Under the pieces are notes generated by a model. The model was not told the DNA's origin, did no database searches, and saw nothing but the letters and a program-made list of their open reading frames with translations. From the IMG/VR virus record IMGVR_UViG_2671180847_000008: 46,714 nucleotides of DNA; one strand, 5' to 3'. Both the position numbers and the translations under genes were made by a program. The stretch comes from a virus (lineage: Duplodnaviria > Heunggongvirae > Uroviricota > Caudoviricetes). Numbering within the stretch: the stretch's first letter is position 1; the number at the start of each line of letters is the position of its first letter. This document shows, in pieces, positions 1,071-46,338 of this stretch.

Positions 1071-1180
1071 ATGCACGGTAATTCTGAAATGCAAAAAATC
1101 AACCAAACCAGCGCAATGCCTGAAAAAACTGACGTTCACTGGAGTGGTCGGTTTAGCGTTGCACCAATGCTCGATAGGAT
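1071..1180 (+). repeat. attL region: displaced native dusA 5' end (encodes MHGNSEMQKINQTSAMPEKTDVHWSGRFSVAPMLD, then diverges into phage DNA)
   Basis: About 80% identical direct repeat of 45301-45410 (the start of intact dusA); reading frame breaks after the shared ATGCTCGA (1167-1174). Confidence 0.8.
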
Positions 1181-1318
1181 GTACCGTTCTTGAAAAACAA
1201 GTAGTTATACACTTTGTGGGAGCCTATTGGGAACCCGGCGTTTTCATTTCAAGGTGTAATCCATACGCGGCTTAAGAATGAGATATAATGCGACTTTTAG
1301 TGTTCCGCTTGAGAGGCC

Positions 1319-1861
1319 ATGATGCTTACCCTGGACGAGATAGGTCAATCAGTACGTAACAATATCCAGTTGATTATTGATCATGTCGGCTTACCTCTTG
1401 CTGTTGGTCCGCTCAGTGATGATGATTACAAGATTCTGTGTGGTGGCTATGGTGAGCTTGAATGGGACTATGCGTTAAGTACCTATGGCAACTCCAGAGA
1501 AAAGTATGAGTTCTGCATAAAACTTGTTCAGCAAGGTCGGGTTCAGGGAATACCATCAGGAGCAGCAATTTGTGTTTATGGGGTTGAAGAAAACATCTTT
1601 CGTATCCATATGATCGAAAGGTTTTCTAGAGAAGATGAATCTCACCCATTGAAAGGGCGCATGGTTTTACTCACTCTTATGAGTGCTTTTATATTTTGTA
1701 AAGCTGTTGAATGTAAAGTTGTCCACATTGTAGAGCCAGTACCAGAACTGGTGCAGTATTACGAGTCTTTTGGTTTCCGCATGGAACAGTGCGGTTATGT
1801 GATGTCGGCAGTCATTGATGAGCTGCAGGATATCTTTCTTAAATTTGCTCAGAAGGTATAG
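1319..1861 (+). CDS. Prophage cargo protein of unknown function, possibly GNAT-like acetyltransferase fold (start may be the second ATG at 1322)
   Basis: 180-aa ORF; RBS GAGAGG before tandem ATGs; perfect TATAAT at 1284-1289; AT-rich; C-terminal pattern GRMVLL...LVQYYESFGF loosely resembles GNAT motifs A/B. Confidence 0.6.
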   Translation: MMLTLDEIGQSVRNNIQLIIDHVGLPLAVGPLSDDDYKILCGGYGELEWDYALSTYGNSREKYEFCIKLVQQGRVQGIPSGAAICVYGVEENIFRIHMIERFSREDESHPLKGRMVLLTLMSAFIFCKAVECKVVHIVEPVPELVQYYESFGFRMEQCGYVMSAVIDELQDIFLKFAQKV

Positions 1862-1960
1862 ACGAGAAGGGTCTACAAATTGTAGGATACCCGTCCAGAT
1901 TACCTTAAAGGTACATCTATGGCAGTCGTTTTGTGCTTAAACTACTAAGAAACGATGTCA

Positions 1961-1981
1961 CCAATCGACATGATCGATTGG
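1961..1981. promoter_or_regulatory. Palindrome CCAATCGA-N5-TCGATTGG upstream of the 57-aa ORF; candidate operator
   Basis: Perfect 8-bp inverted arms with a 5-bp spacer, about 70 bp upstream of the ATG at 2052. Confidence 0.35.
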
Positions 1982-2051
1982 CATAAGTTAGCGAAACAAG
2001 CTAGCTTTAAAGAAAGGGTTAGAGACGCCTTTACTGTCTCGGGAGTTTTCT

Positions 2052-2225
2052 ATGAAAGATCAAAAAGCAACCAAGCCACAGGTTAAGTTCGACACAATGA
2101 AAGCATTCGCAGGTATGGGTGCTGCTGTTGAAGTTCTGATGAAGGCTGCTCCTAATGCGTTCACTCACGCTACTGTCTCTGGTAAAGAGCAGCAGGGTAA
2201 GCTTCGTCGTCGCAAAGCAGCATGA
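2052..2225 (+). CDS. Small basic protein, 57 aa, unknown function (below the ORF-track length cutoff)
   Basis: ATG with RBS GGGAG 6 nt upstream; ends just before a strong terminator; translation MKDQKATKPQVKFDTMKAFAGMGAAVEVLMKAAPNAFTHATVSGKEQQGKLRRRKAA. Confidence 0.55.
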   Translation: MKDQKATKPQVKFDTMKAFAGMGAAVEVLMKAAPNAFTHATVSGKEQQGKLRRRKAA

Positions 2226-2244
2226 TCATAGCTGGTGCTTTTTG

Positions 2245-2272
2245 AAAACCCGCCTTCAGGCGGGTTTTTTCT
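2245..2272. terminator. Bidirectional rho-independent terminator
   Basis: CCCGCC-TTCA-GGCGGG hairpin flanked by an A-tract on one side and six T on the other; lies between convergent genes. Confidence 0.8.
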
Positions 2273-2554
2273 TTAGTGATGTTCTTTGCCCTTCTGTTTG
2301 ACTGTTCTGACCTGTTCCCACTCGATACGTCCTTCTTCTCGCCTTTTGTCTATGTATTCCGCAAGATCCTGAATATTGATGCAACGTTTTGCTTTTTGTG
2401 ATGTGCCGATGCGATATGTTGGAACGGGCAACTTACAAGCGTTTGCTTTTGCTTCTGCCGTGGCTGGACTCATGCCAAAGTACTTTTGGCTAACTGCTGA
2501 GAGTTCAATGTTTGGGGTATTGAATTCAGCCATCAGTAAAAACAAGGTGTTCAT
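2273..2554 (-). CDS. Excisionase-like DNA-binding protein (PrtN/AlpA-type); start chosen at MNTLFLL
   Basis: ATG at 2554 with RBS GGAG 7 nt upstream; small basic protein; last gene of the leftward operon next to attL. Confidence 0.6.
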   Translation of the reverse strand: MNTLFLLMAEFNTPNIELSAVSQKYFGMSPATAEAKANACKLPVPTYRIGTSQKAKRCINIQDLAEYIDKRREEGRIEWEQVRTVKQKGKEHH

Positions 2555-2590
2555 AATTTTCTCCATCAAAACCGGCTGCACCCGGGAAAA

Positions 2591-7343: not shown

Positions 7344-7950
7344 TTTGCTGCTCCTCATCATATCGACCCTGCAAGGTCGGTTGGTTTCTCCACAAAACAG
7401 AGAAGAACACCTGCGGTGACTGCCGCCCGGATGGATTGGGTTATGAGCCCGTCGTCCGGTGATGCTCTTCTCTGTTTTGTAAAAAGAGCGGTACCAGCCG
7501 GAAGCAAGTGTACAAACTGGTACCGCCAAAGCAGTGGCTGTTGTGGTGGGGTTGTCACTCAGGCGTATGGTCAACCTGACAATCCGGTGTCCTCAACGGG
7601 GAAAGAGTAACCCCGCCATACTTACCGCCGCGCCATTTCGCGGATTACCACAACGCTGAGAGCACTTAGCCAGTTACGGCACCACACTTTGTCGCGGTTC
7701 CATAAATGCCCTCATCGTTGCACCCTGGTCTCTTCCCAGGCGTCAAACCGGATCGCCGCGCTGGTTAGGCGTCTTATCAGCATCATCATTGACTTGCACA
7801 TTCCGGCTACCTGGTTTGTTTGCCCGAGCAGGAGTGGATTGTCCCCTTTAACGTCCCCAGACCGCTAACGACGCATGTGCCATACGCCGTGTTACAACCA
7901 AATTTTGTTAGTACCTTGTTTGTAGGTCTGGAAAGAAAGATAAAATGAAG

Positions 7951-15503: not shown

Positions 15504-15520
15504 TTTTGTGGAGAAAGTTG

Positions 15521-15886
15521 ATGCGTGATATTCAAATGGTTCTTGAACGTTGGGGGGCATGGGTGGCAAATAATCACGAGGATGTCACTTGGTCGTCTAT
15601 TGCTGCAGGATTTAAAGGACTAATCCCTTCAAAAGTAAAATCCCGCCCGCAATGTTGTGACGATGACGCGATGATCATTTGTGGATGCATGGCTCGCCTG
15701 AAAAAGAACAACAGCGATTTGCACGATTTATTAGTGGATTATTATGTAGGTGGTATGACGTTTATGGCGCTTGCCCGTAAACATGGGCGTTCTGATTGCT
15801 GGGTTGGGCGTTTATTGCAAAAGGCTGAAGGTGTAGTTGATGGCATGTTAATGATGTTAGAAATTGAGCTAGAGATGGATCGTTAG
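15521..15886 (+). CDS. quuD: Late-gene antiterminator Q (QuuD-like)
   Basis: [22 protein letters not shown]...[16 protein letters not shown] recalled as the DLP12 QuuD family; RBS GGAG. Confidence 0.8.
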
Positions 15887-15970: not shown

Positions 15971-16417
15971 TTAAGGTTTTAATTCATCAAGACGTTGTTG
16001 GATAGTGTTTTTGCTTGCGTTGTCTGTTATAGCCATTTGTTGTACTTGCCCCATTGCCATTTGAGTTTCCATCCACATATCGGCCCACACTTTTGTATCG
16101 TTATTAACTTGAGCGATAGTAAATCTGACTTTTGATACCGGGGTTGTTGAATAGGCATTGCCGATTAACATTTGTCCAAAAACAGCAGACCCGCCTTCCA
16201 GTTCTTTACCACATATAACACTGCTGTTATCCGCGTTGTAAATTATCAACCCTCTACTATTGCAGTAATTCACAAGGGCATCTTTGACTTTATCTTTTGT
16301 CGTATTTTGATAAACCCCCTCAGGTTTTCCTGATTGAGTTTTCTTTATCAATGGTACGGAAGAAGTACAACCTGAAATGATAGTTGCGCTAAGTAATAGT
16401 ACAGTCATTTTATTCAT
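15971..16417 (-). CDS. Lipoprotein of unknown function (moron), antisense to the late operon
   Basis: Signal peptide with lipobox LLSATIISGC; AT-rich; candidate promoter TTGATT-N17-ATAATT on the minus strand (16479-16451). Confidence 0.7.
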   Translation of the reverse strand: MNKMTVLLLSATIISGCTSSVPLIKKTQSGKPEGVYQNTTKDKVKDALVNYCNSRGLIIYNADNSSVICGKELEGGSAVFGQMLIGNAYSTTPVSKVRFTIAQVNNDTKVWADMWMETQMAMGQVQQMAITDNASKNTIQQRLDELKP

Positions 16418-17041: not shown

Positions 17042-18094
17042 ATGAAAAATACTGTAAAAATAAACAGTGTTGATTTAATCAACGCTGATTGCCTGCATTT
17101 TATTCAGTCCCTGCCTGATGATTCCATTGACCTGATTGTTACCGATCCGCCGTACTTCAAGGTGAAACCCAACGGCTGGGACAATCAGTGGAAAGGGGAC
17201 GAAGATTACCTTAAGTGGCTGGACCACTGTCTGGCCCAGTTCTGGCGGGTGTTAAAACCTGCCGGAAGCCTTTACCTGTTCTGTGGGCATCGCCTGGCAT
17301 CTGATATTGAGATCATGATGCGCGAACGTTTCAACGTGCTTAACCATATCATCTGGGCGAAGCCGTCCGGACGTTGGAATGGGTGTAATAAAGAAAGTCT
17401 GCGCGCATATTTTCCTGCCACAGAGCGCGTTCTGTTTGCTGAACATTACCAGGGGCCATATCGCGGCAAAAGTGACGGCTATGCGGCAAAAGAAAGGGAA
17501 CTCAAACAGCACATAATGGCACCGCTGATATCGTATTTCAGGGATGCTCGTGCCGCACTGGGTATAACGGCAAAACAAATTGCCGAAGCCACAGGTAAGA
17601 AAAATATGGTTTCCCACTGGTTTGGTGCCAGTCAGTGGCAGTTGCCGAATGAGGCTGACTATCGGAAGTTACAGGCACTGTTTTCCCGTATAGCGGCAGA
17701 GAAGTTTCAGGAACAACAACTGGAACAACCACACCACCAGCTGGTGGCATCTTATGATTCACTGAATCGTAAATATTCTGAATTGCTGGATGAGTTTAAA
17801 TCTCTCCGGCGTTATTTCTCCGTATCAGTCTCCGTGCCTTATACCGATGTCTGGATGCATAAACCCGTTCAGTTCTACCCGGGTAAACATCCGTGTGAGA
17901 AACCGGCGGATATGCTCAGGCAAATAATCAATGCCAGTAGTCGACCTGGTGATCTGGTTGCTGATTTTTTTATGGGATCCGGTTCCACAATAAAAGCAGC
18001 AATGGCGCTGGGGCGTCGGGCCTTAGGTGTTGAGCTTGAGTCAGAGCGGTTTAACCAGACAGTGAAAGAGATAAACGAGCTGGTGGGGAAATAA
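17042..18094 (+). CDS. Orphan DNA methyltransferase (N6-adenine or N4-cytosine class)
   Basis: DPPY motif (VTDPPYF) and AdoMet-binding FxGxG (FFMGSGST); no adjacent endonuclease gene. Confidence 0.85.
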
Positions 18095-44114: not shown

Positions 44115-45212
44115 TCAAGAGGTCTTATTTCTGCTCCTTTGGAGCTCTTCAAAACGATTATGTAAAGATTTCGGATACAGTTCGGTATATACCTGCCATA
44201 GCACGTTTAATGAACGATGCCCTGTAACCTGAGCGACTTCCTCAATACTAAAACCAGCCTCAAATAAGCGACTTGCCCCTTCTCTACGCAAATCATGGTA
44301 TCGCAGATCTTTAATACCTAATTTGCTTCTTACCCTCTGAAATCCTGCAGTAACAGAAGTGCTGTTATATGGAAAAATGAATTCCGATTTTTTGGGCTGT
44401 CGTTGGACGATATCCCAGGCTTCCCCAAGCAAGGCTACTTTCATGTGGTTGCCTTCCTTTTTGCGTGGATCTTTCCTGTCTCTTACGAGTATAGATTTTT
44501 GTTCCTGGTCGAGATCTTCCCATCGTAACCGGCATACTTCTCCGATCCGCATACAGGACCACACAGAAAATTTGAGGATATCAACGAACGGAATTTTTGA
44601 GCATTTATGAGTAGATCGTTGTTGAAGGCCTTCAATGAGCATGTCCAGTTCATCAGATGCTGGTCTACGATTACGACGGTTTGATTTACCAATCAAACCA
44701 AGTTTAAGTAGATATGGGCGAGCGCTTTTCGCCGGGTTTGATGTGTAATTAATTCCGTATACAGGTTTGGCCGCATCCAGAACACTGCCAAGATAACTAA
44801 CATCGTGGCTGACTGTTGCTGGACCTGCACCAGCGTTGTTTCTTAGCCTGCAATGTTCAATTACGTCATTTTCTGTCAGTTCAGATAGTTTGATCGCGGA
44901 GATGTCACTATCCATAAGCAGTTCCAGCACATATCTTTTAGTACGGCCTGCTTTACCTCCGGCATTTGGGTCATTTAAATATTTGTGTAGTAAGTCACGG
45001 ACTGTAAGTCCGTCAACTGCATTTGATGATGGAATGCCATATAGATCTAATTCCATCACTTTCTGTGTTCCCCATGTTTTGGCATGAGCATGTTTAGGGA
45101 ATGTTTTGCTTTCCCTGTAAGTGATAACACCTTTTTCTTTGATAATCACATTACAGCGATAGCGTGGTGTGCCATCGGATTTTAGTCGTTTCTCTATGTT
45201 ATAGTACGCCAT
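44115..45212 (-). CDS. int: Tyrosine integrase (dusA-targeting type)
   Basis: C-terminal catalytic region with HDLRREGASRLFEAG and VTGHRSLNVLWQVYTELY (His-x-x-Arg, Tyr nucleophile); adjacent to the attachment site in dusA. Confidence 0.9.
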   Translation of the reverse strand: MAYYNIEKRLKSDGTPRYRCNVIIKEKGVITYRESKTFPKHAHAKTWGTQKVMELDLYGIPSSNAVDGLTVRDLLHKYLNDPNAGGKAGRTKRYVLELLMDSDISAIKLSELTENDVIEHCRLRNNAGAGPATVSHDVSYLGSVLDAAKPVYGINYTSNPAKSARPYLLKLGLIGKSNRRNRRPASDELDMLIEGLQQRSTHKCSKIPFVDILKFSVWSCMRIGEVCRLRWEDLDQEQKSILVRDRKDPRKKEGNHMKVALLGEAWDIVQRQPKKSEFIFPYNSTSVTAGFQRVRSKLGIKDLRYHDLRREGASRLFEAGFSIEEVAQVTGHRSLNVLWQVYTELYPKSLHNRFEELQRSRNKTS

Positions 45213-45300: not shown

Positions 45301-45410
45301 ATGCACGATAATCCTGAAACACAGAAAACTAATCAAACCAGCGTGATGCCTGAAAAAACTGGCGCTTACTGGAGTTCTCGGTTTAGCATTGCTCCTATGC
45401 TCGACTGGAC
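45301..45410 (+). repeat. attR region: prophage-supplied replacement 5' end of dusA
   Basis: About 80% identical to 1071-1180; encodes a diverged N-terminus ([35 protein letters not shown]) fused in frame to the rest of dusA. Confidence 0.8.
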
Positions 45411-46338
45411 GGACAGACATTGCCGCTATTTCTTGCGTCTGCTTTCCCGCAATACGTTGCTGTATACCGAAATGGTGACCACAGGGGCGATTATTCACGG
45501 TAAAGGTGATTATCTGGCGTACAGTGAAGAAGAACATCCGGTAGCGTTGCAACTGGGCGGTAGCGATCCGGCGGCGCTGGCGCAGTGTGCAAAGCTGGCA
45601 GAAGCGCGCGGATATGATGAGATCAACCTGAATGTCGGCTGCCCGTCTGACCGGGTGCAGAACGGCATGTTTGGTGCGTGTCTGATGGGTAATGCGCAGC
45701 TGGTTGCCGACTGCGTGAAAGCGATGCGCGATGTGGTGTCGATTCCGGTGACGGTGAAAACGCGTATTGGCATCGACGACCAGGACAGCTATGAATTTCT
45801 CTGCGATTTCATCAATACCGTTTCCGGCAAAGGCGAGTGTGAGATGTTCATCATCCACGCACGTAAAGCCTGGCTTTCGGGGTTAAGCCCGAAAGAAAAC
45901 CGTGAAATCCCGCCGCTCGATTATCCGCGTGTGTATCAACTGAAGCGTGACTTTCCGCATCTGACAATGTCGATTAACGGTGGTATCAAGTCGCTGGAAG
46001 AGGCCAAAGCACACCTGCAACATATGGATGGCGTGATGGTCGGGCGCGAGGCGTATCAGAATCCGGGTATTCTGGCGGCGGTAGACCGGGAGATCTTTGG
46101 TTCCTCGGATACCGATGCCGATCCGGTGGCGGTAGTGCGCGCCATGTATCCGTACATTGAGCGTGAACTCAGCCAGGGGACGTATCTCGGCCATATTACC
46201 CGGCATATGTTGGGCTTGTTCCAGGGTATTCCTGGCGCGCGGCAGTGGCGGCGTTATTTAAGTGAAAATGCCCATAAAGCGGGTGCAGACATTAATGTGC
46301 TGGAACACGCGCTCAAACTGGTGGCGGATAAGCGTTAA
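45301..46338 (+). CDS. dusA: tRNA-dihydrouridine synthase A (chimeric: phage-derived first ~35 codons)
   Basis: Full-length 345-aa ORF of the Dus family with catalytic Cys region (NLNVGCPS); promoter and 5' end lie in prophage DNA. Confidence 0.9.

Follow-up and report, generated by a model that had tools for sequence, protein, structure and literature searches.

A predicted GNAT-fold enzyme and a small partner protein are encoded by a mobile accessory module of mEp460-like dusA prophages

Background

The GNAT/RHH type II toxin-antitoxin systems, which include TacAT, AtaRT, KacAT, and ItaRT, have an antitoxin gene that lies upstream of the toxin gene in a tight operon. In proposed working, they are the described systems most similar to the subject of this report, a pair of plus-strand genes at positions 1319-2272 of the IMG/VR virus record IMGVR_UViG_2671180847_000008. 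This stretch of Caudoviricetes DNA, 46,714 nucleotides long, was analyzed as a whole and is referred to here as the window. The larger gene encodes a protein with a predicted GNAT fold, and the smaller gene encodes a partner of 57 aa. The window GNAT protein has no detectable sequence similarity to the toxins of the GNAT/RHH systems, and its partner has no RHH/DUF1778 DNA-binding domain. In contrast to the antitoxin genes of those systems, the partner gene is located downstream and is preceded by a candidate promoter of its own and by a structured leader of 155 nt. The list of open reading frames (ORFs) in the window includes no RHH/DUF1778-type ORF upstream of the GNAT gene.

The second point of reference is the phage moron in the sense of Hendrix and colleagues, of which lambda lom and bor and the stx genes downstream of Q are reportedly examples. 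A sequence-only reading of the window had described the two genes as an accessory cargo pair in a classic moron position.

A linked and mobile pair of genes

Positions 1236-2275 of the window are an autonomous, horizontally mobile two-gene phage moron. Its genes and terminator are positioned as follows:

1322..1861, plus strand: gene for the GNAT-fold acyltransferase (predicted), 179 aa from the ATG at 1322; the ORF itself opens at 1319 (1319-1861, 180 aa)
2052..2225, plus strand: gene for the 57-aa partner protein (phrog_2741; gp24 of mEp460), identified by a coding-pattern test and by its homologs downstream of GNAT genes
2244..2275, either strand: intrinsic terminator, with a G+C-rich stem of 11 bp (2244-2269) between an A run and a T run

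Complete genomes, GTDB species representatives, IMG/VR, and assemblies supplied about 115 loci through which the linkage of the two genes was followed. Divergent members were reached through contigs encoding divergent GNAT proteins; divergent single proteins in viral contigs gave one locus. At every GNAT homolog examined, a homolog of the small protein is encoded 95-282 bp downstream on the same strand. This linkage spans 20-100% GNAT identity, extends from Escherichia to Shewanella, and is found in at least six genomic contexts. In dusA prophages the module occupies the att-xis slot (E. coli, Salmonella, and mEp460). In Franconibacter, Edwardsiella, Enterobacter hormaechei, and phage Eeyore it has the Q antiterminator gene on one side and the lysis genes on the other, and in Photorhabdus it lies amid the tail-gene cluster of a myovirus. 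It stands beside integrases in Pantoea and on the metagenomic contig L108, and beside early genes in Shewanella. In Escherichia sp. ESNIH1 (locus L007, 5305-6174), the GNAT gene and the small gene stand alone as a two-gene chromosomal islet without phage genes. The treatment of the two genes as a pair was therefore justified, as the GNAT gene was never found without the small gene at the loci examined. Both at L007 5305-6174 and at locus L010, the neighbors of the pair are an EamA-type transporter gene on one side and oxidoreductase genes on the other, and the vicinity contains no phage genes.

An alternative already disfavored, and one that now deserves very little credence, is that the two genes are unrelated morons that happen to be adjacent, or unexpressed remnants in decay. 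The gap of about 190 nt with its candidate promoter and a recombination break between the genes in E. coli would suit this alternative, but co-occurrence seen from the GNAT side is 100% over the whole of the identity range and contexts given above. It is also opposed by the strong purifying selection on the small gene and by the invariance of the catalytic-type residues of the GNAT protein, both described below.

Two alleles of the slot in E. coli

A census of 5426 complete E. coli genomes shows how the pair is distributed within one species. The small gene and its terminator are present in 562 genomes and the GNAT gene in 357-358, of which 356 have the whole pair. In 206 genomes the small gene occurs without the GNAT gene, and a Panacea cassette of about 1.3 kb is found in its stead. 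Because 356 + 206 = 562, no third allele is evident. The DNA that is shared and the DNA that is exchanged are delimited as follows:

1166..1235, either strand: phage-end segment kept in both alleles; the alignment to Panacea-allele prophages ends after ...CCTATTGGGAACC
1236..2041, plus strand: GNAT cassette proper, the allele-specific DNA between the homology boundaries of the two alleles, comprising candidate promoter P1, the GNAT gene, candidate promoter P2, and the RNA leader
2041..2045, plus strand: Shine-Dalgarno sequence GGGAG of the small gene, where homology restarts in the two-allele alignment

Homology between the alleles ends at about 1235 and restarts exactly at the Shine-Dalgarno sequence of the small gene (about 2041-2042), leaving the small gene and terminator common to both. 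The phage-end segment is matched also in genomes that lack the GNAT cassette (bases 1-79 of the query). From these boundaries and counts it follows that the association runs one way: a GNAT gene always comes with the small gene, yet the small gene can exist without a GNAT gene. A comparison of dusA-integrated relatives had been suggested as a check on whether the slot is variable, and E. coli indeed has two alleles, the GNAT cassette and a Panacea toxin-antitoxin cassette. As a correction to the earlier reading, the variable cassette of E. coli stops at about 2041, before the small gene and the terminator.

The alternative cassette encodes a protein with a SocA/Panacea antitoxin domain (Pfam 2e-19, 190 aa) and a partner of 128-139 aa without a family. 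It is presumably a PanA/PanT-type toxin-antitoxin pair with an uncharacterized toxin. Examples are located at L003 2486-3474 and L013 2973-3961, and the cassette is also found in phages SKA5 and Lys8385Vzw. Among complete E. coli genomes, about 6.6% have the GNAT module, many O157:H7 and O111 strains among them; Salmonella, Enterobacter hormaechei, Edwardsiella, Photorhabdus, Pantoea, and Shewanella have it as well.

The larger protein and its predicted GNAT fold

The true start of the larger gene is probably the ATG at 1322, because homologs begin with MLTL and a ribosome-binding site (GAGAGG) is located at 1311-1316. At the other end of the gene (1853-1861), the TAG stop codon of mEp460 gp23 and of most E. 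coli copies is AAG in the window; the window protein is two residues longer at its C-terminus (…KFAQKV versus …KFAQ in most E. coli copies).

Sequence searches provide little information about this protein. It matches no family at E<=1 in Pfam or NCBIfam, PADLOC is likewise without a match, a profile search against the PDB returned nothing relevant, and in PHROGs only phrog_4350 (function unknown) was found. PF00583 is touched by only 1 of 52 relatives (E = 0.006), and some UniRef members of the family bear the name “N-acetyltransferase.” The family is small, with 94 clusters at E<=1e-3 in a profile search of 1.84 billion representative proteins.

The predicted structure is far more informative. 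An AlphaFold2 model built with 32 homologs (pLDDT 91, pTM 0.88) gave 322 Foldseek matches in the PDB at E<=1e-3, and GNAT-type acyltransferases, including AtaT, TacT, and KacT, account for all 50 of the 322 that were listed. Among the matches listed, the closest structures include tRNA-acetylating toxins and N-terminal acetyltransferases, and a viral structure library yielded generic GNATs only. As modeled, the larger protein unambiguously has the GNAT acyltransferase fold, with the mixed alpha/beta architecture of that fold, but it is not recognized by curated GNAT sequence profiles. The earlier description of an “acetyltransferase-like C-terminus” was correct as to the resemblance to GNATs; the model extends the fold to the whole protein rather than to the C-terminus alone. 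The homology and structure searches that had been proposed for both proteins revealed no housekeeping or structural homology for either.

Five residues (Q17, L47, W49, E100, and Y148) are invariant in the family down to 20% identity. In the model, E100 is placed on strand beta4 and Y148 in the YYxxFGF helix, positions that we take to be the usual sites of the GNAT general base and general acid. Their placement argues for an active enzyme.

An active enzyme of this fold need not be a toxin. Under the main alternative, somewhat unlikely but substantial, the GNAT protein would be a modifying enzyme that is not toxic and that has a subunit serving as regulator or adaptor; it would acetylate a specific protein of the host or of an incoming phage for lysogenic conversion or counter-defense. 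Such an enzyme would resemble the anti-CRISPR acetyltransferase AcrVA5, and the small basic protein would target it or would autoregulate the operon through the leader hairpins. The many protein N-terminal and lysine acetyltransferases among the nearest structures are in its favor, as are the generic GNATs that viruses commonly carry. The two alleles bear on it in both directions: the small gene persists without the GNAT gene, but what fills the slot in the sister allele is a cassette of toxin-antitoxin type.

The small partner protein

The 57-aa ORF is a real gene under strong purifying selection. Codon differences among 14 diverged copies number 1215 at the third position versus 287 at the first and 331 at the second, and the other plus-strand frames of the region are closed. 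The protein has no match in Pfam or NCBIfam and none in PADLOC at E<=1, and PDB profiles gave no assignment for it; its only match in PHROGs is phrog_2741 (function unknown). A second ORF in the region (43 aa, 1955-2086) was considered as a coding sequence and rejected: it has no family matches, and it overlaps the leader, where homologs have indels that are not multiples of three.

The AlphaFold2 model of the 57-aa protein is of low confidence (pLDDT 61) and mostly disordered, with short helical segments across residues 15-37 and disordered basic tails (RRRK). Divergent homologs retain the central helix, an acidic residue followed by the invariant Gly49, and a C-terminal ...AA. Residue 50 is often Lys but is Q, E, R, or P in divergent homologs. 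The basic tails would suit the regulatory or adaptor subunit of a modifying enzyme, but the basic C-tail is not conserved in divergent homologs.

The conserved residues around Gly49 also raise the idea that the small protein is the substrate of its neighbor: the GNAT protein would acetylate the N-terminus or the lysine beside Gly49, and the modified peptide would be the active agent. The obligate linkage of the GNAT gene to the small gene, the invariant glycine with a conserved acidic residue before it and often Lys after it, and a lasso-peptide acetyltransferase among the Foldseek matches all speak for such a role. Against it are the replacement of Lys50 in divergent homologs, the absence of a leader peptide, an export gene, and an immunity gene, and the 206 genomes that keep the small gene without the enzyme. 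On balance we consider this a long shot.

Promoters, terminator, and base composition

Two candidate promoters were located within the cassette:

1284..1289, plus strand: candidate -10 of promoter P1, TATAAT, read directly from the sequence
1859..1888, plus strand: candidate internal promoter P2, with -35 TAGACG (1859-1864), an 18-nt spacer, and -10 TAGGAT (1883-1888)

In homologous modules whose flanks are unrelated, a TAnAAT-type hexamer precedes the GNAT start by 30-35 nt. P1 has no good -35 and was not listed by a consensus promoter scan. The TATAAT and ribosome-binding site first attributed to the module are both present, at 1284-1289 and 1311-1316; the TATAAT is without a convincing upstream partner. 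The -35 of P2 overlaps the stop codon of the GNAT gene. Among 19 diverged sequences, this -35 is invariant and the -10, TA(G/C)GAT, has a single variable position among its six, with a spacer that varies. P2 agrees with the consensus at 8 of 12 positions and is absent from the list of the consensus scanner. From these conserved hexamers, we infer that transcription would start at P2.

An exact 13-mer, CATCTTTTACAAC, occurs at L008 5199-5211, L011 5197-5209, L089 3921-3933, and L108 111-123. It lies about 70-80 nt upstream of the GNAT start and, in L089 and L108 (the two loci measured), 32 nt before a -10-like hexamer. The L108 GNAT protein has about 23% identity to the L105-type query and is among those most divergent from the window protein. 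The window carries only a degenerate form, GTTTTCATTTC, at about 1240-1250, adjoining the cassette boundary. The 13-mer may be the site of an upstream regulator.

The module ends in a terminator that had been called bidirectional, and the stem at 2244-2269, with its A run before and T run after, agrees with that description; because the A run precedes the stem, the terminator can also serve the convergent excisionase gene. Terminators are also found directly upstream of the module in several unrelated contexts. The G+C content is 0.425-0.438 over 1201-2400, 0.43-0.50 in the adjacent early region, and about 0.50-0.60 in the late genes. The AT-richness ascribed to the module is thus real relative to the late genes but weak as a distinction, given the similar composition of the early region. 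Of the features expected of a phage moron, the module has a conserved -10, a clear terminator, and a swap between near-identical flanks, together with a modest difference in composition.

The RNA leader

A perfect 8-bp inverted repeat, CCAATCGA/TCGATTGG, precedes the small gene as had been noted, at 1961-1968 and 1974-1981. Just one other inverted repeat of 8 bp or more was found within 1100-2400. An alignment of the spacer between the GNAT gene and the small gene in 19 diverged modules places this repeat in a leader of about 155 nt with five hairpins behind P2:

1900..1914, plus strand: hairpin H2, TTACC..GGTAA, with 91% of cells paired
1920..1959, plus strand: hairpin H2b, sequence-variable, from independent folds
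1961..1981, plus strand: hairpin H3, the 8-bp inverted repeat, from pair substitutions in the alignment
1985..2007, plus strand: hairpin H4, sequence-variable, with four of seven pairs changed on both sides and 89.5% of cells paired
2022..2040, plus strand: hairpin H5, GAGAC..GTCTC, abutting the Shine-Dalgarno sequence; the GTCTC arm is invariant, and A-to-G changes in the 5' arm give G-U pairs

Independent folds of the window sequence and of one that differs by about 35% gave the same architecture (z = -2.9 and -3.4). In the alignment, 87% of cells are paired, versus 26-46% in slid controls, and 29 cells are changed on both sides, versus 14 +/- 3.4 in shuffles. G-U cells outnumber A-C cells by 55 to 26, which points to a plus-strand transcript. 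H2b was judged by independent folds, as its alignment columns are inconsistent and its pair offsets differ between lineages; unrelated sequences form one main hairpin in 16 of the 17 sequences that keep the segment, which is cleanly deleted in L007 and L010. In the leaders of those two loci, the 3' arm of H2 can pair with the 5' arm of H3, a hint at alternative conformations. RNAalifold pairing of columns 10-13 with 197-200 was set aside, since it would pair the -35 hexamer with H5 and shows no variation, and the local GAGAC/GTCTC hairpin was preferred. Rfam has no match in 1862-2051 (scan of 700-2700), and its only matches in the module fall on the terminator, below threshold.

The repeat had been interpreted as a palindromic operator, but it behaves as RNA hairpin H3, one of the five in the covarying leader, with G-U pairing on the plus strand only. 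Its pairs change from C-G to U-G in nine sequences and from A-U to G-U in seven, with compensatory changes at two pairs. In 9 of the 19 sequences, the left arm CCAATCG has become CTGATTG and the right arm is unchanged; because G-U pairs form, this change breaks the DNA palindrome but RNA pairing survives. It is improbable that 1961-1981 is nevertheless a DNA operator for a repressor of the small gene, a role that would not exclude the other readings. The palindrome is perfect in the window, its arms are conserved in sequence, and H2 has the same outer TTACC/GGTAA half-sites. Besides the broken palindrome and the excess of G-U over A-C cells, this role is opposed by the flanking hairpins H2b and H4, which hold their structure with unrelated sequences, and by the unequal spacing of the half-sites (5 nt in H2 versus 15 nt in H3).

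H2 and H3 conserve sequence (TTACC/GGTAA), which leaves room for a protein that recognizes the hairpins. A retained sequence, as opposed to pairing alone, resembles a protein-binding site and would suit autoregulation by the partner of a modifying enzyme, but only the Enterobacteriaceae clade has this leader architecture. The modules of Edwardsiella, Photorhabdus, Shewanella, Pantoea, and others have a spacer of at least 95 nt and no recognizable common leader architecture.

Possible function of the pair

The reading that we prefer, tentatively and with less than even confidence, is that the pair is a toxin-antitoxin-like or abortive-infection/prophage-maintenance module, in which a toxin-like GNAT enzyme is checked by a labile small partner. 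The GNAT protein, dependent on acyl-CoA, would acetylate an amino group of some translation component (aminoacyl-tRNA, a protein N-terminus, or a lysine), and this acetylation could arrest growth. The small protein would bind the GNAT protein, folding on binding, and neutralize or gate the enzyme. Its supply would be set separately by its own promoter and by the structured leader, which has a hairpin beside the Shine-Dalgarno sequence. Upon failure of that supply, for example during infection by another phage or on loss of the prophage, the enzyme would be freed. The pair would then be carried for the benefit of the lysogen, working like a toxin-antitoxin or abortive-infection module. This reading is based on the asymmetry of the linkage, the disorder of the partner, the conserved ...KAA, and the toxin-antitoxin cassette in the sister allele.

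Several observations count against a toxin-antitoxin role. The pyrophosphate loop of motif A (beta4-alpha3) reads HPLKGRM instead of Q/R-x-x-G-x-G/A; the central Gly113 of this loop is conserved in the close GNAT family, and M, L, or V stands in place of the final G/A of the motif. As for the partner, it does not belong to the RHH/DUF1778 antitoxins, and its gene is downstream rather than upstream, about 190 nt away. No defense model of PADLOC-DB 2.0.0 (2023) matches either protein at E<=1. The asymmetry of the linkage suits an obligate cofactor or substrate role of the small protein equally well, and the small gene, intact without the GNAT gene in 206 genomes, may have a function of its own. 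That the C-terminal ...KAA may make the small protein protease-labile is an analogy with the ssrA/MuA-type ClpX recognition tails, which this C-terminus presumably resembles.

A more specific proposal is that the module represents a new class of GNAT toxin system, with a disordered, labile neutralizer of 50-58 aa and a five-hairpin riboregulatory leader, that acts in abortive infection or superinfection exclusion and alternates with Panacea in a defense slot of dusA prophages. Taken in all its parts, this proposal is unlikely.

Prophage setting

The window is an mEp460-like lambdoid prophage of about 44 kb in E. coli dusA, and its 1319-2272 region has 99.5-99.8% identity to hundreds of E. coli chromosomes. 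The module is bordered by the following features:

1071..1175, plus strand: displaced 5' remnant of dusA at the prophage junction; the RefSeq label of a 99.8%-identical locus is “tRNA-dihydrouridine synthase, missing C-terminus”
2273-2581, minus strand: PrtN-family excisionase gene, a neighbor outside the module (Pfam PF11112 4e-23; phrog_1300 “excisionase” 8e-40)

The far end of the prophage has a tyrosine integrase gene (44115-45212, minus strand), a DinI gene, and a full-length dusA (45301-46338). This dusA adjoins the integrase gene and has a phage-derived N-terminus, and the original 5' end is stranded as the left-junction remnant at 1071-1175. Replacement of the 5' end of dusA is the mechanism described for dusA-specific integrases. 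Because the remnant is at the module end and the integrase and restored dusA are at the other, the gene order in the circular phage is int-attP-module-xis, the same as mEp460 gp22-gp25. The placement of the pair between an att site and an excisionase-like gene was accordingly accurate, and the module is an insulated accessory unit in the int/attP-xis slot. The name attL given to that site is a separate matter: the position stands, and under the lambda convention the module-side prophage end would be named attR, a naming point only. A tRNA scan found no tRNA genes in the window.

A second moron-like insert is located in the slot where other phages hold the GNAT module. This low-G+C patch (15971-16417, minus strand, G+C 0.39-0.41) contains a reverse ORF of 148 aa with a lipoprotein-type signal (…LSATIISGC), positioned between a small ORF (15506-15886), which we take to be a Q-like antiterminator gene, and a DNA methylase gene (17042-18094).

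A small RNA of 193 nt modulated by ArcA, sRNA-17 of E. coli K1 RS218, is said to sit in an mEp460-like prophage (PMC7719688). It was considered as part of the module and rejected, as its published sequence maps to 7488-7508 (plus strand) in the prophage early region, outside the module.

Comparison with known systems

The module is common, yet both of its genes are labeled only as hypothetical. Three findings stand even if the proposed function is wrong, and all can be tested directly with the sequenced phage mEp460: the obligate linkage of enzyme and partner, an RNA leader that covaries and is uncataloged, and a natural exchange of cassettes with clean ends. If the pair does act in a toxin-antitoxin or abortive-infection manner, the GNAT toxin family would gain an antitoxin of a new type together with a new element of RNA control, and the slot would be a compact two-allele accessory site in dusA prophages that could be mined for further systems.

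In mEp460, gp23 and gp24 are identical to the window proteins save for the two extra C-terminal residues of the window GNAT, and the layout is int, gp23, gp24, xis. Both are annotated as hypothetical proteins only, and a literature search found no paper characterizing gp23/gp24-type proteins. The N-terminal acetyltransferases (RimI/RimJ, Ard1/Naa10, Naa20, and NatD) are housekeeping enzymes with no dedicated small partner, whereas the window family is phage-borne and fails all Pfam and NCBIfam GNAT profiles. The Panacea (PanA/SocA) cassettes share the slot, its flanks, and the downstream 57-aa gene with the GNAT module, but their proteins are unrelated and the window does not carry them. Like the lambdoid morons, the module is an insert bounded by a promoter and a terminator that is present or absent between conserved phage genes, and it is found in both classical moron slots, the att-proximal one and the one from Q to lysis. 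Unlike other morons, it has an unusual internal promoter and an RNA leader; the term “moron” describes its architecture rather than its function.

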